Of a stretch of DNA of 64,000 nt, positions 12,770-37,285 are shown in pieces. Positions within the stretch are counted from its first letter, which is position 1. Every line of letters starts with the position of its first letter. The DNA is taken from positions 64,228 through 128,227 of the forward strand of contig JAIPGO010000001.1 of NCBI GenBank assembly GCA_021736135.1. Reading direction: 5' to 3'. Below the pieces are notes generated by a model. The model ran no database searches, had not been told where the DNA came from, and worked only from the letters and a program-made list of their open reading frames with translations. Position numbers and translations under genes: made by a program. The stretch comes from Candidatus Cloacimonadota bacterium. GTDB lineage: Bacteria; Cloacimonadota; Cloacimonadia; Cloacimonadales; TCS61.

Positions 12770-13539
12770 CTCAGACTATGATGACAGAGATTGAAAAGAC
12801 AATTGAAGACTGCTTACTACAGAAATTCGATAAATATAATCCAGAGACGGTAAATATGCCTTTTCATTATCGTTTACTTGGTAAAGACAGAATGGCATTA
12901 TTTTCATTTATCCAGTCTTTAAACACAACTTTCGGCACTTCTATATATGAGCCTGTCAGTACCGTCCTGGCATCATTAAATGGTAATTTTGTGCAGGCAC
13001 AAATGCAATATAAAGTTGGCAAAATAATTTCAGAAGCAGCACAAATTGAGATACAAAACATAATAGATGAATTATCTGCCGGGAATGATTCAATGAAAGA
13101 AAGGGAAATTTCAAGGATAAGAAAAGTTTGCAGAAACGGAAAAGGAATTGAAACAAAACCAGTTAAAGTAGATCTTTTTCTTGAAGATAAAGAGGGTGTT
13201 ATTCACTTATTTGACTTAAAGACTGTAAAACCAAATAAAAGTAATTTCAAAGACTTTAAAAGAACCCTTTTAGAATGGGTCGCAATTAGTTTATATAATA
13301 ATCCGAATGCAGAAATCTATTCCTACATCGCCATACCATATAATCCATACGAACCCAAACCGTACGAAAGATGGACTATGAAAGGGATGCTGGATTTAAG
13401 TAAAGAATTGAAAGTCGCTGAAGAGTTCTGGGATTTTCTTGCAGGTGAAAATACTTATAATGAATTACTTGGTTGTTTCGAGAGGGTAGGTATTAAGATG
13501 CGTCCTGTGATAGATCAATATTTTAAGAGGTTCAAATGA
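12763..13539 (+). CDS. Type II restriction endonuclease, PD-(D/E)XK type, TdeIII-like
   Basis: 258 aa. The start overlaps the MTase stop (ATGTTAA, 12763-12769). Candidate PD-(D/E)XK residues are D137 (KVDLF) and D151-L-K153 (HLFDLKTVKPN). The N-terminal FHYRLLGKDRMALFSF..SLNTTFGTS resembles what I recall of the TdeIII family; I cannot verify that here. Confidence 0.6.
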   Translation: MLTQTMMTEIEKTIEDCLLQKFDKYNPETVNMPFHYRLLGKDRMALFSFIQSLNTTFGTSIYEPVSTVLASLNGNFVQAQMQYKVGKIISEAAQIEIQNIIDELSAGNDSMKEREISRIRKVCRNGKGIETKPVKVDLFLEDKEGVIHLFDLKTVKPNKSNFKDFKRTLLEWVAISLYNNPNAEIYSYIAIPYNPYEPKPYERWTMKGMLDLSKELKVAEEFWDFLAGENTYNELLGCFERVGIKMRPVIDQYFKRFK

Positions 13540-13979
13540 TACAAATTCAAAATAGTGATAAGGATTTGGGATATTGTGAAAACCGAAGAAGAGTTTTAGC
13601 TGAAATTGATATACATAAACTCTTAAAGATCGAAAATTCTTACTTGTTGTTTGTTAAATATAGGGATGCCAGGTCGGTGGCAGAGATAGTTAAAGATTTG
13701 GTAGATAGTTATTTATTAATAATTGATGAGGCATCACTTAAGAGGCTTATTGAAATAGAGTCGGACGGTAAGGATAATGATCTTGATCATAGGGTGAAAT
13801 CTATAATAAGTAAAATAAGGCATGATTTTTCCAGTGATAATGAATATTATAAACAATACTGTGCTCTGCTTAACCGACTTACATATAAATTTACTAAGCT
13901 GTTCTGTGATCAGGGCGGATTTATTTTATGGGTAAAACTTACGAAATTTATATTTGAAGAAAATTCCAAGTCTGAATAG
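13536..13979 (+). CDS. Hypothetical protein, third translationally coupled gene of the RM operon
   Basis: 147 aa. ATGA start/stop overlap with the endonuclease gene (13536-13539). Charged and probably helical. No motif recognised. Confidence 0.6.
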   Translation: MIQIQNSDKDLGYCENRRRVLAEIDIHKLLKIENSYLLFVKYRDARSVAEIVKDLVDSYLLIIDEASLKRLIEIESDGKDNDLDHRVKSIISKIRHDFSSDNEYYKQYCALLNRLTYKFTKLFCDQGGFILWVKLTKFIFEENSKSE

Positions 13980-15974: not shown

Positions 15975-18900
15975 TTACTTGATCAGGGTCATCTTTCTAA
16001 TTTGAGAATAATCCGGTGCCTGCAGACTATAGAAATAAATGCCGGAAGCGAATTTATCTGCCTTCCAGATGAATTTATGTTCTCCGGCAGGATATGTATT
16101 TGTATAAATCATCTGTCCGCAAAGATTATATATGCTCAGGACGGCAGATTGATCTTGCGCTACCTGGAAGCAGATCGCTGTTTCCGGGTTGAAAGGATTC
16201 GGGAAATTAGGTTTCAGGGCTGTGACCTGCGGAGCAGAGTTTTCTTCTTGAATAAGATATATGGTTCTGCTTTGCTGTTGATCATTAAGCTGGAAGGAAA
16301 TAGTAATCTGTGCCGGAGGTTTCTGGAATGAATGTTTGAGCGGGATTTTCAGGAAACAGCCTTCTATCGGATACGGAGATGCAACGGCAAATCGTTGCTC
16401 AGTTTCATTATAGGCAGTCAAGATATCTTCGCACAGAACAACCGGTTGTCCCCAAATAGACGCACTGCCAAGCTCAAGAATGGAAAACGCAAAACAGTCA
16501 CCGGTAACCTCAAACTGCAGGTGTTCTTCTTGCCAGGAAATATTTACATGAGGCAACTCATATTCGATTCTAAGGCCTTCAATGGGAAAGTAATCAATCA
16601 TACCAACCAGGAATTGCAGAACCAGTGCGGAATCATAAGCATCGACAGAAAGATTACCATCCAGGTCAGCGACCCTTATCCGCCATTCATCCCAGGGCAG
16701 GGGAGCATAAGGCTGCGGATCGAGTCCGACGGCAAATTTCAGTATGAGAGCAGCATCAAAGGCATCCACTTCTCCCGAATAATCAACGTCTCCATAAGCA
16801 TAGAAAAATACCTGAATGTTTTCCGAATGAGTACTTTCATTATCGTGAATATCCGTTGATGTCAGGTTTACAGCGCCGGTCAATCCTGCCAGGGAATATG
16901 AGTTTTCAACCGTATCAGCCAGCCAGACGTCATTCTGATATAATGAATAAAAGGCAAAATCAGGGGCAGTTGAAGTATCCCAGGAAAGCAGATCATCATT
17001 CAAGCTCAAACCTGCTGGTGCTGTAGGAGCTATATTATCTAGTGAGAATCCGACAGCAGGATCGGAAATCCAGGTGCCTTCGTCCATTTCCGCTATGATC
17101 CTGAATTCCGTGGGAATATTGCTGGCAGAGCAGGAATCCGATATTGTGGGAAGTATAACCTGATAGGAAGCAGCACCCGTGGCAGAAATAACAGCGAGTG
17201 AATTCCAGATGCGTTCATCATTCCTTTGCACCAGGTAACTTTCCTGAGAAGGAATATTATCATATAATGAGCGGTTGAATTCCAGCGAGACCCAGCCTCC
17301 CTGATCATCGGGAACATCATAAATGGCAGTGATCTGCGGTTTTCCTCCCGGCATTACATGCACGGCCACCAGGGCTGTTGTATAAGCTCGGAGCTGAGAA
17401 TCTATGACCATAAAGGTAAGAAACTCCGTGCCAGTCCAATTGTCAGTTGCTGAAAAAGTTACTACTAAACCCTCAATTTCTACATTAAGGTGGTTATAAC
17501 CAAAAATATGCAGTGAAAGCGGCGCATTTTCCGGATCTGATACATACGGAGTGATATCAACGGTGAGAGTCTCAGTTTCATAGAAGAAGAAAGCAGAAGG
17601 CAAGTTTACTATGGGCGGATCATTTACCGGAATGATATGAACGGAAATGTCTGCACTGGCAAAAACTCGAGAGGAATTATCATTCACCGAGAAGGTTATT
17701 AATTCAGAACCGTTCCAGTTAATCGGAGCTGAGAATGTAACCAGCAGATCTTCAATCAATACGTAAATCGACTCATTTCCGGAAACGGTGAGTAGAAGTT
17801 CATCCCCGTCAATATCGCTGACATATTCCGCAAAGTCAAGGGTATAGCTGCCATCTTCCAGAAATGTTACTTCAGCCGGAGGATCTATGGTTGGAGGGTC
17901 ATTGACCGGTATTACGGTTATAGAAACAGAGACTGTTTCGCTGTAATCCATACCGTCATAAGCCTGATAGGTAAAACCGTCTTCTCCGAACCAGTTTTCA
18001 GCCGGCAAATAGGTAAAGCTGCCGTCAGATTGAAGATTGAGCAGACCGAAACTGACATCAGACTGCAAGGCAGCAGCCAGGATATCCGGATAAGTATCCG
18101 GGTCGTTATCGTTTGTTAATATATTACCGGTAAGCTGAGTATCTTCTTCGATCTGAAAGACATCTGTGACTGCCTGAGGTGGAAGATTAGTTAATTGATA
18201 AATTACGACCAGAGTAGTATCACTGGCGGAGCTGTTTTCATTATCTGTGACCGTGAGTATTACTAAAGTTTCCCCGATAGGGAATTCAGCGGAGTGGATC
18301 ATACCGGAGCCATAGCCGGTATCCCAGTTCCAGGAATAGGAAATAATCTCACCATCAACATCGAAAGAAGCAGAACCATCAAGAGTGATCAGTACCGGGT
18401 CACTGCTATATGTATATCCGATATATGTACTCCCGGCATCGGCGACCGGAGGGTCATTTACTGACAATACCTCGATCAGAAGCGTATCAGAAGCAATATC
18501 ACGGGATTGCCCGTCATCTACCAGAAAAACAATTTGCTCAATACCGAACCAGTTGGCAGGAGTTGAAAAAGTAAGGTCAAGCTGTTCAGCGAAAATACTG
18601 ATATTCTGGTTACCCATCCAGGTGAGAGTGAGTTCCTCATTATCCACATCAAGGATATAATCAGCAAAATTGACTTCCAGGCTTGCATCCTCATTAAATG
18701 AGAATGAGTCAGGAAGGGTGATAACTGGCGGATCATTCACGGGCAGGATACTGATGCTGAAAGTATCTGTAACATATAGCCGTGAGAAATTGTCATCTGC
18801 AGTTACAGTGATCTCCGTTATTCCGTTCCAGTTGTCAGCGGAATAAACAAGCAGGATATTATCTTCGATGATAAGGTCAATTTCCTGAGTATTGAACTCA

Positions 18901-21900
18901 GCACTGTAATAAAGCTGATCTTCGTCAATATCACTAAAATATTGCTCAAGCATAATATAGAACATCTCGAAATCTTCATTTCTCTCCAGGTCCGGCAGAT
19001 TTTGTATGATAACAGGCGGGTCATTTACCGGAATAACGGTAATAACAGTGGAATCAGTATAGGAATACCGGTTCTGCTGACTAGTGATCGTAAAAAAGAG
19101 CAGCTCCGAACCGAACCAGTTGGCAGGAGCAGAAATATCTACATTATAACCGGTTATCTCAACATTGATCTGCTGATTCCCATGAACCGAAAGTGCTAAA
19201 TCAGTCGGGTTTCCATTTACCAGGTACTGGCTGAGATCAAGAGCGATCATTTCGTCTTCATTGAAAGCGAATGATTCCGGTAAAAGCAATTGTGATCTGG
19301 GCATGACGGTAAACATAACCTCATCGAAACTGGAGTATTGATACATTGTTTCCTGATCAGTAGCAATAAAGCTAATCACTTCACTTCCTGACCAGTAGAA
19401 ATCATTGATCTCAATCCCGGCAACACTCTGCTGATCAATATCAACCGTAAGAAATCCGGCAGACAGCATAACCGGGTTAAGTGGATTACCCAGTGCCTGG
19501 TTGGAATTGAACATAAATTCCTGAGAAACCGGCAAAGCCTGCTGAAAATAAGCGTCATAAAATCTCAGAGAGATGTTTTCATCATTGTAATTGGAATATA
19601 TCGTAAGAAAATAAAGCCAGCGGTCAAGCACATACATCGCAGAAGTGAGTCCTCGGCACTCGTCTCCGGTAAAAGCAGCCAGGAGATGAGCATCACCACT
19701 GGCAGTATAACCTTTGGAAAGCACTTCCGCCGTGAGAGTCATGCTGTACTGGTAAGCCGCCGGATTTACATTCCATTCCGGAACAGGTTCTGGCTGTTCA
19801 TTTACTTGGAATTCATAACTCCAAACCACCGGATTATCGTCCAGCTCAATGAGATATTGAGAAAGATCGATCTGCTGAAAACCATCACAGGAGTAAACAG
19901 ACTGATCGGGAATATCAATCACCAGCGGAGGATGATCTTCCGGCAATACGGTAAAGGAAACATCCTGTGTATCCCAGGCTGAGAAATCAGTCTCATCTTC
20001 CACACGAAAAGTGATTATATCGGTACCCGTCCAGTCTTCAGACAAAACAGAAATTACGGCAACAGCGTTTTCATCGAGTGATACTGCCAGATTCTGGGCA
20101 CCGGTGCAGCTCCAGATTACGGGATCGTTATCAAGTTCCACCAGATAATCATTGAGTGCCACAGCTTCGAATTCCTCGCCGATAAAAATAACCTGATCGG
20201 GAATTGGATTGATCTGGGGTGCATGGTCATCAATTATAGTGAAAAGAACTTCGTCAAAATCGGAATAGCTGGCAGGTGTTCCCTGGTCCTGAGCCTGAAA
20301 ACGAACAACAGCTTCACCCGCCCAGGCATCATCTGTGATGCCTATCCGGGCAATACCATCCTCAATATCGATCATCAGATCACCAGCATTGATAACGAGA
20401 GGAGCCAGAGGAGAACCGGTACTGCCGTTATTCAGAAAATTAATTGTTTCCCGTGCCGGAATGGTTCTACCCATCTCCGCATCAAAAAAGCGAAAACTTA
20501 TTTCCGTATTATTGACATTGCCATAAACGGTGAGAAAATAAAGCCATCTGTTGACAGCAAAAATTGCCTCAGTGACACCCCGGCATTCATCACCGGCAAA
20601 GGCAGCCAGGAGATGAGTGCCTCCCTCCGCGAGGTATCCTTCTGAGACAACTTCTGCCGTAACAGACATCGTATATTCATAATTGCCGGGAATAACGTTC
20701 CAGTCCGGAGCACAGGCAGGAGATGATTCCGGCAGAAAAAAGTAACTCCAGTTGATGTCATTGCCATCAATCTCGGTAAGATAAGCATTCAGATCAATAT
20801 CTTCAAAGCTCATACCGGTGGCAATCGTCTGATCGGGAATATCGTCAACAACCGGTTCATGATCAATACCAAGCACGGTAAAAGTAACCTGCTGCGAGCT
20901 GAACGCAGCGAATTCCGTATCATCAGTAACCGTGAAAGTAACTGTTTCGCTACCCAGCCAATCCTCGTCTATTAGAGTAATAGTAATAACATTGAATTCA
21001 TCCATAACCAGGTTCAGGTTCACGGGCAGAGAAAAGCTCCAGATCACGGGATCATTATCAAGCTCGATCAGATGCTCATTAAGAGCAATAGTCTCAAAAC
21101 TTTCACCGGTTGTAATGGTCTGATCGGTGATTGGTAATATCTGGGGTGCATGATCGGTGGAAATGCTCAGTATCACATCGTCGGAAGCTGAATAACCGGC
21201 AGTGGTTCCCAGGTCGGAAACTGTAAAAATAACGGTTTCGGAGCCTGTCCAGCCTTCATCTACAATGATAAAGGACGCATTATTATTTTCATTGATATTG
21301 ATGAGCAGATTACCGGCGTTAAGCAGAAAGGGAATAAGCGGATTGCCGATTGCACCGTTAGCAGTAAAGATCACGGATTCGTAAACAGGGAGAGATTCCT
21401 GCTTCTCTGCATCATAAAAGCGGAAAGTTATCTCTTCATCATTAATATTGGCATAGATGGTAAGAAAATAGAACCATTCGCCCATTGCCGATATGCCGTT
21501 GGCTACACCCCGGCATTCTTCACCTGAGAAGGCAGCTAAAATATGCGTATTACCCGGAACTGCCAGATTTTCCGAGCTTACCTGTGCCGTCAGGGTCATA
21601 GTAAATTCAAAAGCACCTGCATCCACGCTCCATTCGGGTATCTGTTCCGGAGTCTCGTTTTCTCCAAACACAAAATCCCAGATATAGGGATCATTATCCA
21701 GTTCCGTCAGATAATCATCCAGCGAAATAGTGGTAAACTGCTGTCCGTTTGCGATTGCCTGATCCAGAATATCAGCTACTTCCGGTGGATGATCTTCTGC
21801 TCTGATCGTAAATATAGCAGAATCGGAATCAAAATAGCCGTTCTCCGTCTGATCTGTGGCAGTAAAGGTTATAGTTTCACTTCCAGACCAGTTCTCATCA

Positions 21901-22487
21901 AGAGCCGAAATTGCGGCAACCCCGGAATTTATTACTATCTGAAGAAATTCTGCACCGGTATAACTCCAGAGAATAGTATCATCATCAAGTTCTGTAAGAT
22001 ATTCATTAAGATCAATGGGGGCGAAATCTGCTCCGAAATCAATGGTCTGATCCGGAATATCTGCTAAAAGCGGAGGATTGTCAAATCCCTGAAAAGCATG
22101 CAGAAGCAAGGGATCAAGCACTGCTCCATAGACCTCATTCGATTGAAATATTATAGTTTCATCAATATCAAGGATCAGGTCATTTTCCGCCTGATAGTAG
22201 CGGAAAGAGAGCACTTCTCCAGACTGGTTGGCATAGACCGTCATAAAAAAAACAGCATTACCGTTTACCATAATGGGAGTGGCAACTCCCCGGCATTCGT
22301 CGCCAAAGAAGGCTCCCAGAACATTACCAGCGCCATTTTCCGGCACATAATTGACCTGCACGGCTGCAATTACATTCGCATTGAACTCATAAGCCGGGGC
22401 AATAACATTCCAGTCGGGCGGATCAGCTCCTAGTAAGGATACAAGGAGCAAAGTAATATATAAGATAAATTTACGGCATTTAAACAT
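15975..22487 (-). CDS. Giant T9SS-sorted surface protein (2170 aa): DECRGV modules, VNDPP-delimited Ig/cadherin-like repeats, PKD-like domain, dockerin-type pair
   Basis: Signal peptide MFKCRKFILYITLLLVSLLGA. Four DECRGV modules. About 8 VNDPPV-delimited ~100-aa repeats. PKD-like DGSASFDVDGEIISYSWNW. Dockerin-type loops GDVDYSGEVDAFDAALIL and ADLDGNLSVDAYDSALVL. C-terminus NFPNPFNPETAICFQ..GIYFYSL..TLIK. AAGGAG RBS. Confidence 0.9.
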   Translation of the reverse strand: MFKCRKFILYITLLLVSLLGADPPDWNVIAPAYEFNANVIAAVQVNYVPENGAGNVLGAFFGDECRGVATPIMVNGNAVFFMTVYANQSGEVLSFRYYQAENDLILDIDETIIFQSNEVYGAVLDPLLLHAFQGFDNPPLLADIPDQTIDFGADFAPIDLNEYLTELDDDTILWSYTGAEFLQIVINSGVAAISALDENWSGSETITFTATDQTENGYFDSDSAIFTIRAEDHPPEVADILDQAIANGQQFTTISLDDYLTELDNDPYIWDFVFGENETPEQIPEWSVDAGAFEFTMTLTAQVSSENLAVPGNTHILAAFSGEECRGVANGISAMGEWFYFLTIYANINDEEITFRFYDAEKQESLPVYESVIFTANGAIGNPLIPFLLNAGNLLININENNNASFIIVDEGWTGSETVIFTVSDLGTTAGYSASDDVILSISTDHAPQILPITDQTITTGESFETIALNEHLIELDNDPVIWSFSLPVNLNLVMDEFNVITITLIDEDWLGSETVTFTVTDDTEFAAFSSQQVTFTVLGIDHEPVVDDIPDQTIATGMSFEDIDLNAYLTEIDGNDINWSYFFLPESSPACAPDWNVIPGNYEYTMSVTAEVVSEGYLAEGGTHLLAAFAGDECRGVTEAIFAVNRWLYFLTVYGNVNNTEISFRFFDAEMGRTIPARETINFLNNGSTGSPLAPLVINAGDLMIDIEDGIARIGITDDAWAGEAVVRFQAQDQGTPASYSDFDEVLFTIIDDHAPQINPIPDQVIFIGEEFEAVALNDYLVELDNDPVIWSCTGAQNLAVSLDENAVAVISVLSEDWTGTDIITFRVEDETDFSAWDTQDVSFTVLPEDHPPLVIDIPDQSVYSCDGFQQIDLSQYLIELDDNPVVWSYEFQVNEQPEPVPEWNVNPAAYQYSMTLTAEVLSKGYTASGDAHLLAAFTGDECRGLTSAMYVLDRWLYFLTIYSNYNDENISLRFYDAYFQQALPVSQEFMFNSNQALGNPLNPVMLSAGFLTVDIDQQSVAGIEINDFYWSGSEVISFIATDQETMYQYSSFDEVMFTVMPRSQLLLPESFAFNEDEMIALDLSQYLVNGNPTDLALSVHGNQQINVEITGYNVDISAPANWFGSELLFFTITSQQNRYSYTDSTVITVIPVNDPPVIIQNLPDLERNEDFEMFYIMLEQYFSDIDEDQLYYSAEFNTQEIDLIIEDNILLVYSADNWNGITEITVTADDNFSRLYVTDTFSISILPVNDPPVITLPDSFSFNEDASLEVNFADYILDVDNEELTLTWMGNQNISIFAEQLDLTFSTPANWFGIEQIVFLVDDGQSRDIASDTLLIEVLSVNDPPVADAGSTYIGYTYSSDPVLITLDGSASFDVDGEIISYSWNWDTGYGSGMIHSAEFPIGETLVILTVTDNENSSASDTTLVVIYQLTNLPPQAVTDVFQIEEDTQLTGNILTNDNDPDTYPDILAAALQSDVSFGLLNLQSDGSFTYLPAENWFGEDGFTYQAYDGMDYSETVSVSITVIPVNDPPTIDPPAEVTFLEDGSYTLDFAEYVSDIDGDELLLTVSGNESIYVLIEDLLVTFSAPINWNGSELITFSVNDNSSRVFASADISVHIIPVNDPPIVNLPSAFFFYETETLTVDITPYVSDPENAPLSLHIFGYNHLNVEIEGLVVTFSATDNWTGTEFLTFMVIDSQLRAYTTALVAVHVMPGGKPQITAIYDVPDDQGGWVSLEFNRSLYDNIPSQESYLVQRNDERIWNSLAVISATGAASYQVILPTISDSCSASNIPTEFRIIAEMDEGTWISDPAVGFSLDNIAPTAPAGLSLNDDLLSWDTSTAPDFAFYSLYQNDVWLADTVENSYSLAGLTGAVNLTSTDIHDNESTHSENIQVFFYAYGDVDYSGEVDAFDAALILKFAVGLDPQPYAPLPWDEWRIRVADLDGNLSVDAYDSALVLQFLVGMIDYFPIEGLRIEYELPHVNISWQEEHLQFEVTGDCFAFSILELGSASIWGQPVVLCEDILTAYNETEQRFAVASPYPIEGCFLKIPLKHSFQKPPAQITISFQLNDQQQSRTIYLIQEENSAPQVTALKPNFPNPFNPETAICFQVAQDQSAVLSIYNLCGQMIYTNTYPAGEHKFIWKADKFASGIYFYSLQAPDYSQIRKMTLIK
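19460..22424 (-). repeat. Internal super-repeat of the 2170-aa gene (~260-310 aa period, 4 DECRGV modules alternating with DIPDQ/ELDNDP modules)
   Basis: The D/E-E-C-R-G codons lie at 22284-22301, 21504-21521, 20574-20591 and 19647-19664 (aa 63, 323, 633, 942). Intervening segments repeat DIPDQTI..YL(T/I)ELD(N/D)DP..W..W(S/T)G(S/T)E..TF. Confidence 0.75.
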
Positions 22488-22506
22488 GTTTTTCTCCTTT
22501 TAATGT

Positions 22507-22537
22507 CGGGCTGCAGGGACTAAGTTCCTGCAGCCCG
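22507..22537 (-). promoter_or_regulatory. Intercistronic stem-loop between the two giant ORFs (no U-run)
   Basis: CGGGCTGCAGG (22507-22517) pairs with CCTGCAGCCCG (22527-22537). On the mRNA strand it is followed by ACAUUAAAAGGAGAAAAACAUG, the RBS and start of the 2170-aa gene. Confidence 0.5.
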
Positions 22538-22545
22538 TACAGGCT

Positions 22546-25500
22546 TTATTTCATCAGGAGAACTTTTCTCATTTCCTGGTAGCCGTCGGCCTTGATCTGA
22601 AGAAAATATACGCCACTGGCTATGGGATTATGATCATCATTATCGCCTGTCCAGCTCAGATGATACCAGCCGCTTTCCTGGGTCTCATTGACCAGGGTTT
22701 TAACTTTTTGACCCTTAATATTGAACATCACTATTTCCACGGGAGTATTTTCACTTAAGCTGTATTTAATGTGAAGTTCCGGATTAAAAGGATTCGGATA
22801 AAGCGCCTGCAGGCGTGTTTCCAATACAGGGATCAAGTTCTCGTCGCCATCGGTAAGTGGCAAAGTATGCAAAGCATAAGGTTCAAGAATAGAACCGAAA
22901 ACATCATTTGCGGCAAAGTCAATAGTCTCTTCCAGATCATATGTTTGGGAAGTAAGACTGTTAAAATACTTGAAATTGAAGGAAATATCTTCATCAACAT
23001 TGCCATAAACCGTCATAAAGACAAGATTCCTGTCAAATGCCTCCAGATAAACCGGTGTCGTTACACCCCGGCACTCGTCGCCATAGAAGGCTGCGATCAT
23101 ATCTGTTTCATTTGCGGCTTCCATACCATCCTGCATTACTACAGCTATAATATTCATGTTATATTCATACAGCTCCGGGATAACCTGCCAGTCAGGTTCA
23201 TCTTCCTGAACTGCCCGCAGATCACTTTCCGAGTAAAGACTTAGCGCAATGTCTTCCGGCATTCCAGCCAGAGGAACGATCTCAAAGGGATATACAAGTT
23301 CACCGGGATAGGTGAGCCGCATCAGGTAGCCCTTATTCGGCTGCAGAAACTGCATATTGCCGAACCAGCCCATATTTTCCACAAACTGGGCAAAACCTGC
23401 CTGACTCTTGATGATATCACCGGTAGTTAGTCCATCCAGAGAATTGAGTGCATAATTCAACTCCATACTATACTGCGGCAGATAGCTGATCCAGTTCCAG
23501 CCCGGTGAAACAAACAGAGTATCAGTTTCAACATTTACCGGGTAACCGGTTATCTGCAGGGTATCATCTTCAGCCATTCGCAGCAGATACATCGTGGAAG
23601 TGCTGATCTGGGTCATATTGCCCACCCAGCCATAATATTCAACAAACTGAGCAAAGGAACTCTGGGTTTTGATCATATCATTTCCTGTAGGCGTCAGGCT
23701 TTCCAGGAAAGAATTTATACCCATATCCGCTTTAGTCAGGTTAAAGGACAGCCAGTTCCAGCCGTCATTTATCTTGACAGATTTAATAACCTGATTAGTG
23801 GCAGTGATCGTCACCGGAGCAGTGGGATTACCGAGTACGGAATTAGCTACAAATTCGTAACTTTCCACAATATTGCCCAGTACCGTAGATTCGGAAGCAT
23901 CCCAGACCCTGAAACTAAGGATCTCACCTTCCAGCTGATTACTATAAATTGAGATAAATGTTTCATAAGGGTGCAGCCCCAGTTCATTTTCCAGCGTTGG
24001 GATATAAGATATCTCACCCACCCCGCGACATTCATCATCCACGAATACTCCCACAATATCATAAACATCATCAGAAAGTATGTTATCAACCGCCAGCACG
24101 GCAGTCATATTCATAGAAAATTCAAAATCAGTCATATCAAAAGACCATTCCGGCGGGTAATCAAGAATTCTGATATCAATAATCAGGGGTTCATCACCCA
24201 TAACGGCATTAGCATAAATTGTCGTATTATGCTGTCCGGCGGCAGCATCATCCACCAGATTGATAGAAATGGAACGTTCTTCTCCAGGAGTTAAGATCCC
24301 CTCAATAGGTGAAAATTCCAGCCAGTCAGGTAATGGTAACGGTTCTCCGGAAGGCCAGCCATTATCACGTCCGCCGATCAGCTCATAAGATCGGTTGCTG
24401 CCCCCGATATTGCGGAGAATCCGGGAAGTCTGCACGGTCTGATCAACGTAAATTACTTCGTGAATGCTCTCACCCAGCCATTCCACGGGATTGCGGTTCA
24501 CAAAGAATTCCCAGGAAATGGGTTCTGCAATGGAATTGCCATGCATATCTTCCAGCACATTGATATCCACCCGTAATGTCTGATTTTCGATCCATTCGTT
24601 ATTTACAGCCGGTTCCACAGTGATCGTATTAAAACCAAAAGTGAAATCGAAATCAACCATTTGACCGGTAGTTGTATTAAACAGCGCGATGTCCTGATTA
24701 CCCTGGCTGATCAGAGCGCCATTGATGTTCTCATTAAAATGGATGGCGATCTGGTCATCAGGACTCAGAATTCCGTCCACAGGTTCCGGACTGCCGAAGA
24801 TTTCCGGACCCTCTCTATCGATCAGCCCGGTGACGATATTGGAATATCCGTCTCCGCTGTCTCCGGTTGAAACTGTAATGGCTCTCAGTTCATAAGCTCC
24901 GTCAACAACAATACTGGGACTGATGTTCCAGGGCATGATAATATAATCTTCCGTAATGTTTTCCACTAAAACGGAATAAGCAGTAAACCATTCACCTGTT
25001 CTTTCGTCAAAGGAATGTTCTTCATTATTTTCATTTGTCTGAGCTTCTGCAAACAAGCTGCTTACGGAGTCAGATTGCCTTTTCTTTTCTTCCCCGAAGG
25101 CTGCTGATAATTCAGGAGTTTCCCCGCCGGAATCACCTCTGCCGGATGTTGAAGGTCTATATTTAAGATCAATACTCACCAGGTTCGTGGCAAAGCGGTT
25201 ATAACCATCCATCGTTACCCAGAGAGTGTCACCTTCATCTGCGGATGTGATCAGCCAGTTATCCTGCGGAACTGCTATATGTACCTCACTTGCCGGCTGC
25301 TGAAATTCCACCGATACCTGTGCATAAGCTGCCAGTTCCATAGGTCCTCCGTTTTCCCAGACGGCATATTGCCCCGGAGGCACTAGCATGAACTGCAGAT
25401 TATTATAAATGTATTCCACCGGACCTCGCTCGATGGAAAGAATGTTTTCCACCTGCTCACCATAAGGAATATAGTAAGATAGATGGTCTTCAATCGGTAT

Positions 25501-28500
25501 GCCATTAACGGAAATCTGTGCTCCATCGGGATTGGAGGTATTGATCACGCGGAACCAGTATTCCCGCTGCTCTTCCGTTTCACTCAGGTTACCAAGCAGC
25601 ATTGTGAAACTCGCTGCTTCATCCGGAGAAACATTTACCTGGGCTGCCGGTGTGATATCCAGAGACGGCTGGTCTCGCATCTGCGTGCCATCTTCCCAGG
25701 GATTGCTCGAAGCTCCCGTTATGGTCTCAAATACGGGCGTCCCATAAGTCCCATCCCATTTCACATCAAGAGTAAAGCTGTCACCTATATCATCATCTGC
25801 CAGCACAAAGCCCACCGTATTGGAATGTGTGGTTGTTTCAGAACTGGATTCTCCCATTGTGATCTCGGTTCCGATCATAAAACCACCCACAACACCTACT
25901 CCATTCACTTCAATTCCGGCAGCAAAGGCTGTTTCTTCATTGATAAAGGTTTCAAACTGATATGATACCGTTTCGGATGTCTCTTCTGTTTCCGTATATT
26001 CATAAGTTGCTCCTGCATCAAATGACCTGTTCTCGATCAAACTGGCACTTTCTTTCAAATCATGGTTGGAGTCCACAAAACTCTGCCAGCGAGCCGCTGA
26101 TTCTTCATCTCCGATCAGTTCCAGAGAGGGGATCAGTGAATTCAATATATGATATTCGGAATAAAGGTAGTTTGTGGCAAATCCCTGGGGTGCGATGATA
26201 ATATCTGCATCCAGTGAAAGCACTCCGTCGGTAACATCAAGAATGTCCGTTATACCGTAAAGCAGGTTCATAGCTCCACCCATATAGAGATCGCCATCCT
26301 GACCCACGAAAGTGTTTTCCGCGCTGGTCTGGATCGCCTCCGTCGTGGAAATAGTCCAGGTTTGTTCCTGCTGACTGGAATTTGTGGTCGTCATTGCTGT
26401 GCTGTAATTAAAATCGAGCGTCACATCAACTGCTATTTCCGTTGATACTATGAACCCGATTTCTGTTGTAACATCTACTCCCAGATAGGCGTTGATGAAT
26501 TCTGAAGAATTATCATTATGGATCATGCTGATCCCAACGGACATGGAATGCGTTTCCGTGGTGGAAAGATAACTGTAACTGTGATCTCCGGGAGGATCGC
26601 GCAGGATCATGATCGGAATTTCCGGAGTCGTCGTGGTAAAGGCGGAAGTGCGGGGTTTATTACCCGTAACAATCGCCCACTCCGTGATCTGTGCCTGGCG
26701 ATCATAATTATCCGTGGCAATTACCGTAAACTGCTTTTGATAAGGATGATCACCTCCGGAAAGGATATTGGGTTCCCGCACCAGACAGCTATATTCGATA
26801 GCGCCATCAGTAAATACTGCCGTTGTATCAATATTATTGCCAAAATAATCCAGCACGCGCACATAACCTGAATCAACGGGACAGGTATTAATGACCGTCT
26901 CGCCTTCCAGCCACGTGCTGTATGATTCATATATCTCTATATCAAAAGTATAGTAATTATTCATTGTCAGCAGACCAACTCCAGAAATTTCCGATTCATC
27001 GGGCAGGGTGATCGTGCCTCCTTCGGGAATGCCGCTAACCGCCACATCCGGAGGAGCATAATAGATAAAGTCATACACTCTGTCCTCCTCTTCCAGGGAT
27101 AATGTTTCCGCATCAAAGAAAGCATCTATCTCGGGATTGGGATGATCTATCCAGATCTGGTATATAAATGGCGGCAGATCTTCTATTTTGTATTCACCCG
27201 TAACGGGATGCGGCACTACTGATTTTTCAATGCAACCGTTCACCGCCCGCACGGTAACTTCGATCTGACCCTGGGAAGGTGTGATCGGGAAACGGCAACT
27301 GCCTCCTGCAACTTTTCCTGTTATCTCCCGGAATTCCTGATCGGAAAAATAGAGCCCTGTTCTGGGTGAAGCTATGAGCGGTAATTCTATAAAGGGCGGA
27401 ATGAATTCATGCAGTTCAAATACCGGCTGGATAATATCTCCCGTACTTCCCGGCTCCAGCTCTATGATCCACTTGCCGTCTGCATCGGTATAGATCGGCG
27501 GAACAAGTGATACTCCATTTACCAGAATCTGAACTTCGTCCTGGAAACAGGCTGTGGATTCATAACGCACATAACCGCTGATCGGGATCATGGAAATATC
27601 CGTGAAATTGACCATATCGACTGATGTATTACTGGCATTCAGGCTTGCCTGACGGCTTTCCGGCTCATAATAATGCTCAAACATCTCGATCAGTGGTATA
27701 TCTTCGGTCCAGACTACTCCGTTTTCCAGAGTTCCAGTGGCAATATTGCCAGTAGCATCTGTAACCAGCAGATCTCCGCCTTCGTTCATTTTCCAGTAGT
27801 TCGCCAGACCATATTCATCACCTTCCAGAACCTGATTTTTTGTGCCATTGATCTGATCATAGTTGCGGCAGAGATTCCATAACCGCATTTCATCAATTCT
27901 GCCATTAAAGTAAAGATCATCTTCTTCCGGTGCTGCGCGACCCATAACTATTTCCGAAAGATCAGGAATAGTATTGGCATCAGCAGCTTCCTCTGCCAGT
28001 TGACCGTCTATGTATAATCTGAATGTCTCCTGATCATAACTCACGGCATAATGATGCCAGAGGTTATCTGCCATATTTTCCGAATTCTGCAGCTCAGTTG
28101 TGAAATGAGTTCCCCTGATATAACCTTCAGGAGTCATCTCCACTCTCAGACGCAATTCATCATTGGCAGGATCTGTTGCACTAAAAAGCACCTGTGCCTG
28201 GGTCTCGGCTGTTTTAAACCAGCCTTCCTGCGTATAGCCGAAAACCATGTCCACTCTCACTCCGTAAAAGCTTACAAATTGATCAGCGCCATTCAGCTCC
28301 AAAGCTCTGCCGATATTTGTCTGCTTGGAGGGAGTTACGGTAAAGGTTGTTCCTCCGCCATAATAAATTCCGCGGATGGCATAGTTGCCTACACTGTCCG
28401 TAAGCGCTCCCACGTAAACGGGAGCCAGATTGGGACTGCGTGTGATGTGACATATCTCTCCATCATTGTCATTTTGCGTAAGGTCAAAAACGATGTCTCC

Positions 28501-29709
28501 TTCCACTTCATCAAATTTCCAGTAAGCTGCCAGCCCCTCTTCATCGCCGGACAGTGTGATGTCCTGATATTTGCGCAGGTCTTCCCATTCCCGCGGTATG
28601 CTCCAGATACGAAAATCATCCATTCTGCCGTAATAGTAGTTCGTGGGATCCATGGGAGCAGATTTGCCTATCATGATTTCTGCCTGATCTGCTATGTAAC
28701 CGGTGGCTATTGCTTCGCCCACAATAAAACCATCCACATACATGGTCATTTCCAGGGTGTCAAACACGCAGGCTACATGATGCCAGCGCCCGTTGCCCCA
28801 TTCATCAAAACCGCTGTAGGGATTAACCGTGGTGATCTCCGTCCCGGTTATACCTGCGGCAGGATTATGTTCCCAGTGCAGATATCCGCCTTCCAGAAGT
28901 TCCAGCTTCAGATAGTGATCGACCGTGGATGAATCGACTGCGGCAAAAAGCGTCTGCACATGATCTGTATGCGTGGAGCGGAACCACGTTTCTATTGTAT
29001 AGCTTTCTTCCAGACCCACAAATAGCCGGTTAAGACTCGTCTCAGGATCTATGTAATAAACATAGGAATGCTCACCGGGACCAAAGAAGGCTGATCTCCC
29101 CAGGTTTGGCGTCAACATCACTTTCGTGTCTTCTACCGGATTACCGCTGGGTGTTTCCACATGTCCCGTTATCACGCCATTAGGATTCATAAATCCAATA
29201 TTATTCTCTTTATGGCTGGTTCCCATTTCGTTCGTGGAAACCACCCCATACTGATAATATTCTCCGGGAAAAACATTGAAATCCTGATAGTCCGTCTGCG
29301 ATACCGGCAAAGTGGATAAAACGTAACCATTCCGATACAGCACCACGTTAGCACCCGTTACCGGAGGGCCCGTGTGATCATCTTCAATTGTCCACTGCAC
29401 CAGCACCATATCCTGAAAATCGCCATCTGAGGCGCGCACAATGGGCGGACGCGGTTCTTTCATATAAAAAGACCAGAGACCTCCAACCATACTGTGTTGC
29501 GAATAGTTGGTCGCCTGCTGGATCATGGGCTGACCCACAGTCAGTTTCAGATTGAATAGCTGACTGTTTGTATTGCCCGTTGCTGCGGCATTATTTACCG
29601 TCATATAAGGTACCGAATAATTGGGCTCACAGGTTTGACCCCATACCGATACACTAAAGAAGATGATAAACAATCCGACAAGCAAGCTTCTAAAATGCTT
29701 CACTTTCAT
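22546..29709 (-). CDS. Giant T9SS-sorted surface protein (2387 aa) with two LamG/ConA-like domains, unassigned Ser/Thr-rich centre, GWNW repeats and two DECRGV modules
   Basis: Signal peptide MKVKHFRSLLVGLFIIFFSVSVWG. LamG-type blocks WHHVACVFD..MYVDG..GRMDDFRIWS and WHHYAVSYD..LYIDG..GRIDEMRLWN. DECRGV codons at 24019-24036 and 23062-23079. C-terminus LYPNPFNPELHIKY..GVYFLQI..LLMK. Confidence 0.9.
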   Translation of the reverse strand: MKVKHFRSLLVGLFIIFFSVSVWGQTCEPNYSVPYMTVNNAAATGNTNSQLFNLKLTVGQPMIQQATNYSQHSMVGGLWSFYMKEPRPPIVRASDGDFQDMVLVQWTIEDDHTGPPVTGANVVLYRNGYVLSTLPVSQTDYQDFNVFPGEYYQYGVVSTNEMGTSHKENNIGFMNPNGVITGHVETPSGNPVEDTKVMLTPNLGRSAFFGPGEHSYVYYIDPETSLNRLFVGLEESYTIETWFRSTHTDHVQTLFAAVDSSTVDHYLKLELLEGGYLHWEHNPAAGITGTEITTVNPYSGFDEWGNGRWHHVACVFDTLEMTMYVDGFIVGEAIATGYIADQAEIMIGKSAPMDPTNYYYGRMDDFRIWSIPREWEDLRKYQDITLSGDEEGLAAYWKFDEVEGDIVFDLTQNDNDGEICHITRSPNLAPVYVGALTDSVGNYAIRGIYYGGGTTFTVTPSKQTNIGRALELNGADQFVSFYGVRVDMVFGYTQEGWFKTAETQAQVLFSATDPANDELRLRVEMTPEGYIRGTHFTTELQNSENMADNLWHHYAVSYDQETFRLYIDGQLAEEAADANTIPDLSEIVMGRAAPEEDDLYFNGRIDEMRLWNLCRNYDQINGTKNQVLEGDEYGLANYWKMNEGGDLLVTDATGNIATGTLENGVVWTEDIPLIEMFEHYYEPESRQASLNASNTSVDMVNFTDISMIPISGYVRYESTACFQDEVQILVNGVSLVPPIYTDADGKWIIELEPGSTGDIIQPVFELHEFIPPFIELPLIASPRTGLYFSDQEFREITGKVAGGSCRFPITPSQGQIEVTVRAVNGCIEKSVVPHPVTGEYKIEDLPPFIYQIWIDHPNPEIDAFFDAETLSLEEEDRVYDFIYYAPPDVAVSGIPEGGTITLPDESEISGVGLLTMNNYYTFDIEIYESYSTWLEGETVINTCPVDSGYVRVLDYFGNNIDTTAVFTDGAIEYSCLVREPNILSGGDHPYQKQFTVIATDNYDRQAQITEWAIVTGNKPRTSAFTTTTPEIPIMILRDPPGDHSYSYLSTTETHSMSVGISMIHNDNSSEFINAYLGVDVTTEIGFIVSTEIAVDVTLDFNYSTAMTTTNSSQQEQTWTISTTEAIQTSAENTFVGQDGDLYMGGAMNLLYGITDILDVTDGVLSLDADIIIAPQGFATNYLYSEYHILNSLIPSLELIGDEESAARWQSFVDSNHDLKESASLIENRSFDAGATYEYTETEETSETVSYQFETFINEETAFAAGIEVNGVGVVGGFMIGTEITMGESSSETTTHSNTVGFVLADDDIGDSFTLDVKWDGTYGTPVFETITGASSNPWEDGTQMRDQPSLDITPAAQVNVSPDEAASFTMLLGNLSETEEQREYWFRVINTSNPDGAQISVNGIPIEDHLSYYIPYGEQVENILSIERGPVEYIYNNLQFMLVPPGQYAVWENGGPMELAAYAQVSVEFQQPASEVHIAVPQDNWLITSADEGDTLWVTMDGYNRFATNLVSIDLKYRPSTSGRGDSGGETPELSAAFGEEKKRQSDSVSSLFAEAQTNENNEEHSFDERTGEWFTAYSVLVENITEDYIIMPWNISPSIVVDGAYELRAITVSTGDSGDGYSNIVTGLIDREGPEIFGSPEPVDGILSPDDQIAIHFNENINGALISQGNQDIALFNTTTGQMVDFDFTFGFNTITVEPAVNNEWIENQTLRVDINVLEDMHGNSIAEPISWEFFVNRNPVEWLGESIHEVIYVDQTVQTSRILRNIGGSNRSYELIGGRDNGWPSGEPLPLPDWLEFSPIEGILTPGEERSISINLVDDAAAGQHNTTIYANAVMGDEPLIIDIRILDYPPEWSFDMTDFEFSMNMTAVLAVDNILSDDVYDIVGVFVDDECRGVGEISYIPTLENELGLHPYETFISIYSNQLEGEILSFRVWDASESTVLGNIVESYEFVANSVLGNPTAPVTITATNQVIKSVKINDGWNWLSFNLTKADMGINSFLESLTPTGNDMIKTQSSFAQFVEYYGWVGNMTQISTSTMYLLRMAEDDTLQITGYPVNVETDTLFVSPGWNWISYLPQYSMELNYALNSLDGLTTGDIIKSQAGFAQFVENMGWFGNMQFLQPNKGYLMRLTYPGELVYPFEIVPLAGMPEDIALSLYSESDLRAVQEDEPDWQVIPELYEYNMNIIAVVMQDGMEAANETDMIAAFYGDECRGVTTPVYLEAFDRNLVFMTVYGNVDEDISFNFKYFNSLTSQTYDLEETIDFAANDVFGSILEPYALHTLPLTDGDENLIPVLETRLQALYPNPFNPELHIKYSLSENTPVEIVMFNIKGQKVKTLVNETQESGWYHLSWTGDNDDHNPIASGVYFLQIKADGYQEMRKVLLMK

Positions 29710-29742: not shown

Positions 29743-32088
29743 TTACTTATTTTCCAGCGCTTCGATTCTAAGTATCAGCATCTCGATTGTTCTTTCCTGT
29801 TCCTCCACTATTTCATTCAGTTCCTGAATAGCAGCTATTGCTACAACACCAAATCCTGAATAATTCAAGGTCAATTCTTCGTCTTTTTCTCCTACCAGTT
29901 CAGGATATAGATCAGCAACTTCTTGTGCTATAAACCCAATACATTTCTCTTCACTGTCGTCCTGGGTTTTGTAATGGAACCTACTAGGCTTCAACTGCAT
30001 TACTTTTCCCAGATTGTCGCTTTCAACCTGTTCTATGTTTTTCTTAACACTGCGGTCTGACCAAGTATGGAAAGAACCATCCCCACAGTCAACGTAAGCT
30101 TTATTGCTTCCATTATACCTAAAGGAAAAATCATTATCAGTATACATAAATAATTGCCAGTTATCATATCCTCTATACCAATAATAACCTGTAAATCCTA
30201 AATCCTGTGAAGTAGTATTATTTGCCTTGAAAAACATATCACTATATATATATCCGGTAGAGTAGACACTGTTTGTCCCTGTAACATAACCAAAATTCGC
30301 GGCACTGCCTGTTATCCCTGAAGTTCTTATGTTTCCGTCACATTCGATTTGATCTTCCACATAAAGATCTCCTACACTTGTAGCATAATCTACCGAGGCA
30401 TTGCCATCCCATATGCGGACACTGTTTCCTCTAACATCCAGACATCCAGATGGCGAATAGTTATGCCCGATTGACACAGAGCTTAACTTACTCGCTGAAG
30501 ATGGATTTACTACATAACTGGGACTATCTAAATCCATCATTGATGAAGCATATAAATACCCCCCACATTCAAGAATATCTTCTACGAAAAGGTCTCCTGC
30601 ACCTGAGGCATAATTAACCGTGGCGCTGCCATCCCAAATCCTGACTTCGTCATTACGAACATCAAGTGATCCATAGTTTGTACCGCTAAAACCTAAACTA
30701 ATCGATTGCATACTGGAACTGCCTGCGGGATTTACAAAGTAATTTTGATTTTGAAGATCATAAACGGCACTACTGCTCAAAGTTCCACTTATATAAGCAT
30801 TGCCATCCAATTCCAATACGTCTTCCACGTAAAGGGCTGACTGACCATAGGCATAATCAACACTGGCGTTGCCATCCCAGATGCGCAATCCTCCATTGCG
30901 TATATCCAGAATATCCGCCGGATCATAATCATGACCAAGTGACAATCCTACCAGTTTAGAATTTCCTGCCGGATTAACGTACCAGTATGGACTATCAACA
31001 TCTTTAAAAGTAGTACCCTTTATTTCATTAGAAACCGTTACTGGAGAATTGGAAAGCAGGGGACCATAGAAATTGATCGTTCCGGTAGGTACAATACTTA
31101 ATCGGGTTGTTGAACCACTGATCAGATCAAGGTTTCCCGTTCCGTCTTCATCACTGTCTGCTGTGATCATGGCATTGCCAGAATTCGATAATGAACTGGC
31201 TGAACCACCCATATCTGCGCTGACCAGTGTGGAACCGTCATCAAACATGATCCCGCCATTACGCATCTTCAGATTACCATTTATATCCAGTGCTTGTGCT
31301 GGAGTATCCAGGTTTACTCCTATTTTCCCATCAGGTGCCACTACAAACTGACTCGAGCCGTCTTCATTTTCTATTAAAAGCTTATTGAGCTGCGGATCAG
31401 TAGCCACTATGTGCAAATCTGCTTCCGGGATTTCCACATTCACTCCCACCTGACTGCCAGCAGTTACTACGAACTTATTGGTACCGTCCGCTTCCTCGAT
31501 GATAATCTTATTTTCTGCTGCATCAGTTGCAACCACGTGCAGGTCAGCCTCTGGTGTCTCAACGTTAATACCTACTTTTCCTGCTTCTGTAACAACAACT
31601 GAATTTTCACCAGTTTCGCTTTCGATCAAGAGCTTATCGACACCAGCTTCGGAATCCACAATATGCAGATAGGCAGCCGGTTCATGAGTTCCTATTCCCA
31701 CATTTCCTACTGATGGAAATACGTTGTCAGTTCCAAATACGCTCATGGCTGAAGGCGATTTAGTGAGTTTAAAGCGCGGTTCCATTTCCACGCCTTCATT
31801 GACCGTGATCCCGATCCAGTAATGTTCATCAAAAGGAATCTGATCCAGAGGACTATTTACTCCCAGTTCCACTCCAAATACACCATTAGTAACCAGAACG
31901 CTGCCCTGGCTTTCTTCCCAGAATGCAGATCCGCCTGCTTCCTCATTGTAAAGCTTGAATAATAAATTGTAGTATCCGTCATCTACCGTCTTACCCAGGG
32001 GATCTCTCAATACACCCTGCACTGAAAATGTGTCTGCGCCTAATACGCATAATGCCAATACAAAAAATAACAAAATCGCTCTTTTCAT
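29743..32088 (-). CDS. Secreted tail-fibre-like protein with C-terminal peptidase S74 intramolecular-chaperone domain
   Basis: 781 aa. Signal peptide MKRAILLFFVLALCVLGA. Three ~40-aa repeats (..PEADLH(I/V)VATD..) at 31285-31707. Three ~77-aa repeats (..VNPAG..L(D)(I/V)R..(L/V)RIWDG(N/S)A(S/T)V(D/N)YA..L(Y/F)VED..) at 30319-31005. C-terminus WSDRSVKKNIEQVE..IGFIAQEV..LNYSGF plus coiled coil, with Ser677 (30058-30060) and Lys682 (30043-30045) spaced as in endosialidase/tail-spike autocleavage dyads. AAGGAG RBS. Confidence 0.85.
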   Translation of the reverse strand: MKRAILLFFVLALCVLGADTFSVQGVLRDPLGKTVDDGYYNLLFKLYNEEAGGSAFWEESQGSVLVTNGVFGVELGVNSPLDQIPFDEHYWIGITVNEGVEMEPRFKLTKSPSAMSVFGTDNVFPSVGNVGIGTHEPAAYLHIVDSEAGVDKLLIESETGENSVVVTEAGKVGINVETPEADLHVVATDAAENKIIIEEADGTNKFVVTAGSQVGVNVEIPEADLHIVATDPQLNKLLIENEDGSSQFVVAPDGKIGVNLDTPAQALDINGNLKMRNGGIMFDDGSTLVSADMGGSASSLSNSGNAMITADSDEDGTGNLDLISGSTTRLSIVPTGTINFYGPLLSNSPVTVSNEIKGTTFKDVDSPYWYVNPAGNSKLVGLSLGHDYDPADILDIRNGGLRIWDGNASVDYAYGQSALYVEDVLELDGNAYISGTLSSSAVYDLQNQNYFVNPAGSSSMQSISLGFSGTNYGSLDVRNDEVRIWDGSATVNYASGAGDLFVEDILECGGYLYASSMMDLDSPSYVVNPSSASKLSSVSIGHNYSPSGCLDVRGNSVRIWDGNASVDYATSVGDLYVEDQIECDGNIRTSGITGSAANFGYVTGTNSVYSTGYIYSDMFFKANNTTSQDLGFTGYYWYRGYDNWQLFMYTDNDFSFRYNGSNKAYVDCGDGSFHTWSDRSVKKNIEQVESDNLGKVMQLKPSRFHYKTQDDSEEKCIGFIAQEVADLYPELVGEKDEELTLNYSGFGVVAIAAIQELNEIVEEQERTIEMLILRIEALENK

Positions 32089-32383: not shown

Positions 32384-32416
32384 TTCTAACCCCTGGTAAT
32401 TTCTGAGTTCTATTCA

Positions 32417-32431
32417 GCAATTTGAATACCA
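32417..32431 (-). promoter_or_regulatory. Sigma54-type -24/-12 promoter
   Basis: The minus strand reads TGGTATTCAAATTGC(T). GG-N10-GC spacing is identical to the TGGCAC-N5-TTGC consensus. It lies about 33 nt upstream of ORF 32383 and downstream of a sigma54 activator gene. Confidence 0.55.
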
Positions 32432-36246: not shown

Positions 36247-37285
36247 AATATAGCTCCACACTTTTTCTCTTCAATTTATTAACCTTTTAATAAATCTGTA
36301 AATCAATGTCAAGATTAACTCTTGCTGTCATCCTCCTTCCCCTGAATTTCTATTTCCTTTCGGACATAATATCAAAGAGGAGGGAAGCAACATTGGATGC
36401 CAGAAACAAGCGGTTATATGTGAAATCCCATAGTACAAAATGGGTTAACCCATATTGTGCAGTATAAATTTGCGAATAGCAGTAAGCTTTGGGCGCAGAG
36501 AGAGTTAGATTATTTTCATAAATATTTAATCGGTGAACAGTGAACAGTGATGGGTAAATCCAACTGAAGATAAGATATTACTACTCTTCATCAAATCCTA
36601 ACCTGGACAAGCCAGAACCAAAGAAAAGATTATTAACCACGGACGTCACCGGACAGCACGGATAATGTAAGAAAAGAACGGATTTATTCTGGCATTATTT
36701 TCGTCAGTGGGGTCGGTGGTTGAAAATCTTTTCTGCCCAAAACTGGATATTGGTTATTGGCAGAGGAACAAAGTCAGCCATTGCGGAGGTCTGGCGACAT
36801 TCGCAAGGTTTTGACCAAATATTCTGCCAAAAATTGACAGAATATTTTTGTAAGGTACTCCGGGCAAGACTTTGGGGCGTCGAATACTTACTCGGCATCG
36901 TTTAATTAATTTCCTGACAGTATTTTAGTCGCTCAAAAGTCTTGTCCTGAGTACAGTCCAAAACTCTTGGCTTAAATTGGATATCGTCTTCTTCAAAGAA
37001 CAATCATTAGTTTTCGCACAGCCTCCAAAATGGGTTAAATATTACTAAAACAATAGTTCTAATTGAGGACGATAAATGACAAAAACAATTTATTACCAAT
37101 ATGAACCCACAGCATTCCCACAGCATCCTCTAATTATGGGCAGAAAGGATATATATATTATACTGAAATAAGAAGTTAAGTTAAGAATTACAGAAAAATT
37201 ACAGGAAATAACCTGAAAAACGGATACGGAGAATGAATTGATAGAAAAAGGAATGAACGTTATAAATAATTATCTTTGATGTTGG

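Follow-up and report, generated by a model that had tools for sequence, protein, structure and literature searches.

An unnamed beta-sandwich module repeated in giant type IX-secreted surface proteins of Candidatus Cloacimonadota and related phyla

Two adjacent genes on the minus strand of a 64,000-nucleotide (nt) stretch of Candidatus Cloacimonadota DNA, which comes from a metagenome-assembled genome (MAG) and is called the window below, encode giant proteins of 2170 and 2387 amino acids (aa), here p1 and p2, which share six copies of a module of about 110 aa. We found this module to be a new, unnamed domain family of a familiar kind, namely that of the beta-sandwich accessory modules which bacterial surface proteins carry. 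We infer, with a probability of about 0.6, that it is a non-catalytic binding module of adhesin-like surface proteins anchored through the secretion system of type IX (T9SS); the ligands proposed below are likewise conditional.

Six copies of the module in two adjacent proteins

The two genes and the six copies lie as follows:

15975-22487, minus strand: p1, 2170 aa, T9SS cargo protein (NCBI MCF7918324.1, 'tandem-95 repeat protein')
22546-29709, minus strand: p2, 2387 aa, T9SS cargo protein (NCBI MCF7918325.1, 'T9SS type A sorting domain-containing protein')
22089-22421, minus strand: module 1, p1 residues 23-133, free-standing at the mature N-terminus directly behind the signal peptide
21306-21644, minus strand: module 2, p1 residues 282-394, nested in the X domain at 232-444
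20379-20711, minus strand: module 3, p1 residues 593-703, nested in the X domain at 542-753; the copy used for modelling
19452-19784, minus strand: module 4, p1 residues 902-1012, nested in the X domain at 851-1063
23791-24156, minus strand: module 5, p2 residues 1852-1973, a variant with an 8-residue loop insertion
22858-23199, minus strand: module 6, p2 residues 2171-2284, immediately ahead of the T9SS C-terminal domain (CTD)

A first reading, made from the sequence alone, had reported six DECRGV modules, four in the 2170-aa and two in the 2387-aa protein, and our regular-expression and hidden Markov model (HMM) searches matched it exactly. The regular-expression scan placed the (D/E)ECRG(V/L) codons at 22284-22301, 21504-21521, 20574-20591 and 19647-19664 in p1 and at 24019-24036 and 23062-23079 in p2, and in no other place in any frame of the window. 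An HMM built from the six copies recovered each of them with an independent E-value (i-E) of 1e-43 to 1e-51, and a six-frame search with it revealed no seventh copy in the window, the next best match having an E-value (E) of 0.45. About 113 columns of the copies can be aligned, 15 of them invariant, at a pairwise identity of 32-50%; a chance origin of the six-copy pattern is excluded. The signature of the module in the wider family is PxW ... AAFxGxE[CVLI]RG ... FLTxYxN ... FxxNxxxGxxxxP.

The modules of p2 are position-orthologous across phyla, and module 5 is closer to its counterparts in p2 homologues of other phyla (53-58% identity) than to its paralogues in the window (36%). By these identities the six copies are old, differentiated paralogues and not the outcome of a recent local duplication. 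The nested p1 modules are closest to one another (50% identity).

Family, fold and the cysteine

The module could not be assigned to any named family, as the sequence-only reading had held: there was no consistent match in Pfam, NCBIfam, PHROGs or PDB sequences. Each window copy searched alone at E<=10 gave no real match, and 77 diverse family members searched against Pfam and NCBIfam at E<=1 gave scattered single matches (E>=0.019) to no common family. PHROGs returned no match to the module, and profile searches across all PDB sequences returned best E-values of 0.79 and 0.52. Scans of whole p1 and p2 left the modules uncovered by any match, and the precomputed Pfam lists of 120 p2 homologues held no family covering them. 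Neither by sequence profile nor by fold did the module belong with any protein of known structure in the PDB, and searches of the literature turned up no description of it.

To obtain its fold, an AlphaFold2 model of copy 3 (113 residues) was built with a 77-sequence alignment. The model (predicted local distance difference test, pLDDT, 97.0; predicted template modelling score, pTM, 0.89) shows an all-beta fold of seven strands, along with a short helical turn at the N-terminus, and by this prediction the module is an autonomous seven-stranded beta-sandwich of about 110 residues. Foldseek found no close solved structure in the PDB (template modelling score, TM, <= 0.5). Conservation was assessed in 505 domain copies from the 162 best proteins, to which the percentages and counts of copies below refer. 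Seven positions are near-invariant, P3 (92%), W5 (98%), R45 (89%), G46 (96%), F93 (91%), G100 (99%) and P105 (98%), and the fold would be determined by these Pro-x-Trp, Arg-Gly, Phe, Gly and Pro residues. Conserved polar positions are E43, R45, Y64, N66, E70, K/R75, Y77 and D78.

The sequence-only reading had described a single invariant cysteine in each copy, within an acidic-Cys-Arg-Gly turn, and had named a reactive cysteine as one possible function. The cysteine is indeed invariant in the six window copies and in many close relatives, but not in the wider family, where position 44 is Cys in just 47% of copies and otherwise Val (23%), Leu (15%) or Ile (10%), with ECRG counted 172 times, EVRG 80, ELRG 43 and EIRG 27 times. 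No cysteine at all is found in 221 of the 505 copies, and of 151 multi-copy proteins 46 are all-Cys, 59 Cys-free and 46 mix the two types. Thus, of the proposed Cys-Arg-Gly triad, the Arg-Gly pair is conserved in homologues and the Cys is not. Because aliphatic residues replace it at a position within a predicted beta-strand (model residues 43-53), Cys44 is a buried, replaceable residue of the hydrophobic core. A reactive cysteine, acting in a thioester, a redox or metal site or covalent attachment, is effectively refuted by this variability. A thioester was ruled out as the Cys is variable and no Gln partner is conserved in the alignment, and an isopeptide as the conserved basic position 75 is a mixture of Lys and Arg. 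The module does not point to a novel catalytic or covalent chemistry, the cysteine being neutral within the core.

The family extends far beyond this locus. When the representatives of 1.84 billion clusters (50% identity) were searched exhaustively with HMMER, 7258 proteins matched at E<=1e-3, of which 4414 reached E<=1e-10 and 834 reached E<=1e-30; a single protein holds up to 11 copies. A pattern scan of one genome per species yielded more than 512 confirmed genome loci, even though the pattern demanded the Cys-containing motif. Most loci belong to the Fibrobacteres-Chlorobi-Bacteroidetes (FCB) group, namely to Cloacimonadota, Neomarinimicrobiota (Marinimicrobia) and many Bacteroidota; single locus examples come from Calditrichaceae, Krumholzibacteriia, Gemmatimonadota, Chlorobiota and Lentisphaeria. 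Cultured isolates, namely Prevotella sp. 885 and Hallella faecis, account for two of the loci, which makes the family experimentally testable. With more than 7000 50%-identity clusters, it ranks among the larger domain families that lack annotation in surface proteins of the FCB group, and a name for it would allow better annotation of giant proteins that are labelled 'hypothetical' or 'T9SS sorting domain-containing' and number thousands in Cloacimonadota, Marinimicrobia and gut or rumen Bacteroidales. Existing knowledge is not overturned by it; the module merits a database entry and a binding study.

Two observations concern the edges of this distribution. Loci with p2-like module genes were also found in MAGs labelled as non-FCB (L044, Bathyarchaeota; L051, Desulfobacteraceae; L060, Roseobacteraceae; L029, delta proteobacterium), which may reflect either binning errors or real horizontal spread. 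In BFVD, the 136-aa 'uncultured marine virus' protein A0A0F7L4H0 resembled the module (Foldseek E 2e-8, TM 0.80, 21% identity); by this structural match it is another family member, which could be either carried by a virus or a mis-assigned bacterial fragment. A phage origin of the module was rejected, as PHROGs gave no match and the only BFVD match, A0A0F7L4H0, is an uncharacterised member of the family.

Surface display and putative function

Both carriers have a signal peptide and a type A sorting domain (TIGR04183 / PF18962; 30.7 bits in p1 and 37.1 bits in p2, cut-off 23) and hence belong to the T9SS cargo. Library scans of whole p1 reported Big_9 (6e-43 over seven stretches), Cadherin_4/5, tandem-95 repeats (tand_rpt_95, 2.5e-50), PKD, a marginal dockerin and the T9SS type A tail, and those of whole p2 reported two LamG domains and the T9SS tail. 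The order in p1 is signal peptide, module 1, alternating intact and module-bearing X domains and more Big_9/cadherin-like repeats, followed by the PKD domain, an EF-hand pair that resembles dockerins, and lastly the T9SS CTD. In p2, two LamG domains and a large unannotated centre are followed by module 5, two GWNW repeats, module 6 and the CTD.

The three nested copies of p1 sit in the following host domains:

21156-21794, minus strand: split X domain around module 2 (cadherin-like/Big_9-type); its spliced halves align with intact X domains
20229-20864, minus strand: split X domain around module 3; the nested unit modelled with AlphaFold2
19299-19937, minus strand: split X domain around module 4

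As read from their flanks, modules 2, 3 and 4 each interrupt a cadherin-like X domain of about 97 aa, of the form DHPP..IPDQ.I..G..F..I.L..YL.E.D.D...WSY, then the insert, then L.V.I.....A.I.....W.GSE...F.A.D......S....V.F.V. When the module was removed in silico, the halves of X could be aligned along their entire length with the uninterrupted X domains at residues 137-231, 445-541 and 754-850, so that the N-terminal 1060 residues of p1 read signal peptide, m1, X, X[m2], X, X[m3], X, X[m4]. The X domain is itself a member of the Big_9/cadherin-like 'tandem-95' families (PF17963 / PF17803 / NF012211), and the module is not. Nested X[module] units occur in 29 further homologues among the best matches. 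The AlphaFold2 model of one such unit (p1 542-753) was confident as a whole (pLDDT 95.6, pTM 0.86); Foldseek with this two-domain model returned only sequential cadherin-tandem alignments with a root-mean-square deviation of about 25 A, which by themselves do not confirm the nested topology. Since they are inserted in a loop of a complete domain, the nested modules protrude from the stalk and therefore add nothing to its length.

The module is also found in much smaller and in more repetitive proteins. P0001 (215 aa) consists of a signal peptide, the module and a T9SS tail, and P0002-P0005 (196-211 aa) of a signal peptide, the module and a dockerin, while tandem arrays hold five copies in 572 aa or 11 copies in 2248 aa. 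Among 39 random members the partner domains were Por_Secre_tail (19), FlgD_ig (13), Big_9 (11), cadherin-like (7), InlB B-repeat (6), He_PIG (5) and fn3 (4), and also CarboxypepD_reg and PKD; a T9SS sorting domain was present in 19 of the 39. In these and 10 other members scanned, enzymatic partner domains were essentially absent, and the family is restricted to secreted or surface-anchored, non-enzymatic proteins.

The anchoring signals of the two window proteins, and a repeat that lies between the modules of p2, map to:

15990-16205, minus strand: T9SS type A C-terminal sorting domain of p1
22561-22803, minus strand: T9SS type A C-terminal sorting domain of p2
16608-16796, minus strand: Dockerin_1-like EF-hand pair of p1, residues 1898-1960 (23.3 bits against a Pfam cut-off of 22.9)
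23200-23790, minus strand: two GWNW repeats of about 95 aa each between modules 5 and 6 of p2, unannotated

The EF-hand pair of p1 lies about 130 residues ahead of the T9SS tail, and the pairing of module and dockerin recurs in the 196-aa homologues P0002-P0005.

The module would, then, be a non-catalytic building block of FCB-group cell-surface proteins, whose carriers would be exported by Sec and the T9SS or be tethered by a dockerin. It would be displayed at the distal N-terminal tip of p1, sideways from the cadherin-like stalk of p1, where it is nested in every second repeat, and twice in a conserved C-terminal cassette of p2. Its most probable function would be the multivalent binding of an external ligand, which might be a partner protein or else a glycan or particle surface. 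This role is proposed because the module is the sole payload of some anchored proteins, is displayed both at a tip and laterally, and is multiplied. The sequence-only reading had spoken of a functional unit such as a binding domain or a reactive cysteine; with the latter refuted, binding is still the best functional guess, and nested display together with the small anchored proteins that carry nothing else make it a good candidate for adhesion or ligand binding by a new type of module.

Several results weigh against this proposal. The conserved polar positions from E43 to D78 listed above may form an exposed patch or an internal network, and the likeness of the fold to carbohydrate-binding modules (CBMs) is generic (TM <= 0.5). 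The tandem head-to-tail arrays are equally compatible with a simple stalk element, and the pattern of gene pairs described below hints at protein-protein docking and not at an external ligand. The arrays would fit an explanation in which the module is inert and structural, serving as a spacer or to thicken the stalk in the manner of the many Ig-like repeats of giant surface proteins, and itself binds nothing. The generic beta-sandwich fold would suit such an element, as would its constant place among other repeat domains and the fold-determining look of its most conserved residues (W, G, P and F). We nevertheless regard it as improbable: in the small secreted proteins that consist of module and anchoring signal alone the module is the only possible functional part, an insertion in a loop of a complete stalk domain lengthens nothing, and the positions of the modules in p2 are kept across phyla.

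The gene pairs lead to another explanation. Proteins of the p2 family are conserved over their full length (2200-2500 aa, 30-65% identity across nearly the whole length), carry two modules near the C-terminus about 420 residues apart in every member, and bear no annotation beyond 'LamG-like' or 'T9SS sorting domain'. At 32 of 56 evaluable loci, a number inflated by the choice of loci through the module pattern, a p2-like gene is followed directly by a gene with the module right behind its signal peptide. Among 40 module-first open reading frames whose upstream sequence was long enough to judge, the gene directly upstream is p2-like in 30 cases and another module gene in six; P0003 and P0006, both small proteins, are encoded in a like arrangement in independently found contigs, and in locus L080 the paired genes overlap by 11 nt. 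The downstream proteins range from 186 aa to more than 2300 aa, and in six genomes they are p1-like with four copies. The p2-like giant and the module-first gene are thus a pair that recurs across phyla, and this points to an unstudied surface complex. The sequence-only reading had overlooked this cross-phylum conservation of the two-gene arrangement, as well as the nesting of three copies.

Such pairing would follow if the modules in the C-terminal cassette of p2 docked with the N-terminal module of the product encoded directly downstream, giving a two-component surface complex. The partner would be p1 here and elsewhere a minimal protein of module and CTD or of module and dockerin, in a manner functionally analogous to cohesin and dockerin. 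The position orthology of the p2 modules agrees with docking, yet p1's N-terminal module does not keep its position from one genome to another, p1 and p2 each have a T9SS anchor of their own, and one-to-one pairing leaves thousands of module proteins, and arrays of up to 11 copies, unexplained. We hold docking to be unlikely. Its extension, that recognition by the module underlies an as yet undescribed system for the assembly of T9SS surface proteins, in which the p2 cassette captures the N-terminal module encoded by its neighbour, is a speculative one that we would not expect to hold. If it did, the p2 giant would be a scaffold for variable docked partners, from module-and-anchor proteins of 186 aa to adhesins of 2000 aa, and a cohesin-dockerin-like principle would operate across Cloacimonadota, Marinimicrobia, Bacteroidota and related phyla.

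Among known domains, starch-binding-type CBMs, such as CBM41 of Thermotoga PulA (2j72) and CBM20/21 of glucoamylases (6fhv), are likewise all-beta sandwiches of about 100-110 aa that are non-catalytic, extracellular and often multiplied, and they were among the best Foldseek matches in the PDB (TM 0.34-0.50). However, no structural or sequence match to them is significant (E 0.04-0.08), and none of the 49 members scanned joins the module to a glycoside hydrolase. No glycoside hydrolase, polysaccharide lyase or carbohydrate esterase domain to which a CBM might be appended was found in these 39 and 10 members, and a CBM attached to enzymes was rejected. For a CBM-like binding face, the conserved Y64, Y77, R45 and K/R75, known from the sequence alignment, are candidate residues only. 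Prealbumin- or transthyretin-like sandwiches also have seven strands, and the best PDB match (4v4c_B, E 0.011, query-based TM, TMq, 0.47) is the C-terminal domain of the beta subunit of pyrogallol-phloroglucinol transhydroxylase, another example being 5-hydroxyisourate hydrolase (3qva). CarboxypepD_reg domains, which are transthyretin-like, occur in the same proteins as the module, but the module never matches PF13620 or PF13715, and a TM below 0.5 signifies a likeness of general topology.

The Big_9, Cadherin_4, Cadherin_5 and tandem-95 domains (PF17963, PF17803, PF17892, NF012211) occur in the same proteins, too, and are beta-sandwich repeats of about 95-110 aa; the module differs from them in having no match to their models, a signature of its own and a position that interrupts a cadherin-like host domain. 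As the module co-occurs with dockerin-type EF-hand pairs (p1, P0002-P0005) and the products of adjacent genes could assemble, the cohesin-dockerin system (PF00963 / PF00404) was considered. Cohesins are nine-stranded jelly rolls of about 140-150 aa, whereas the module has seven strands in 110 aa and no match to PF00963; the size, the strand number and the missing Pfam match led us to reject the module as a cohesin. In RTX/Bap-type giant adhesins, ligand-binding domains are inserted laterally in stalk repeats. A globular domain in the loop of a stalk repeat that protrudes from the fibre, in a multivalent and surface-anchored protein, is what p1 would have in common with them; the secretion route (here T9SS), the phyla and the inserted fold differ, and the analogy is architectural only.

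Further features of p1 and p2 and the neighbouring genes

The two GWNW repeats of p2 share the signature GWNW(L/I)S ... (M/I)IK(T/S)Q..FAQFVE..GW.GNM and have no Pfam match; as the spacing of about 420 aa between the modules is kept in p2 homologues, they look like a second unnamed domain. The centre of p2 (residues ~700-1850) comprises more than 1000 residues free of any Pfam family or PDB sequence match, with Ser/Thr-rich alternating stretches at residues ~960-1400. Hosts of the p2 family include Cloacimonadota, Marinimicrobia, Cyclobacteriaceae, Saprospiraceae, Ignavibacteriae, Gemmatimonadota and Prevotella/Hallella, and full-length p1 as a query found no relative in the genome contig collection.

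Directly upstream of p2, with a gap of 33 nt, a gene at 29743-32088 (minus strand) encodes a 781-aa protein that carries a Peptidase_S74 intramolecular-chaperone domain in its C-terminal part and matches PHROG tail fibres many times over (best E 1e-22). The protein is a phage-tail-fibre-like fibre, presumably trimeric, and its gene looks to form one operon with p2 and p1. Just upstream of these three genes lies the gene of a sigma-54 enhancer-binding protein that contains tetratricopeptide repeats (32590-34686, minus strand), and the gap of 500 nt holds a weak -24/-12-like element, TGGTAT-N5-TTGCT, with two mismatches (32416-32431, minus strand). Genome-wide, the sigma-54 promoter pattern occurred at chance level (28 found, 27 expected), and the element is merely a hint.

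Two other T9SS cargo proteins of the window carry no module, a 1588-aa gingipain-like C25 peptidase with a propeptide and a FlgD_ig/Por tail (4779-9545, minus strand) and a 520-aa CarboxypepD_reg protein with a T9SS tail (34699-36261, minus strand). On the plus strand, 11192-13979 encodes a type II restriction-modification pair, an N6/N4 DNA methylase and a TdeIII-family endonuclease (E 6e-86). As this pair sits in a stretch of low guanine-cytosine content (0.33-0.35, against about 0.43 in the flanks), the stretch suggests a mobile insertion beside the surface-protein operon.

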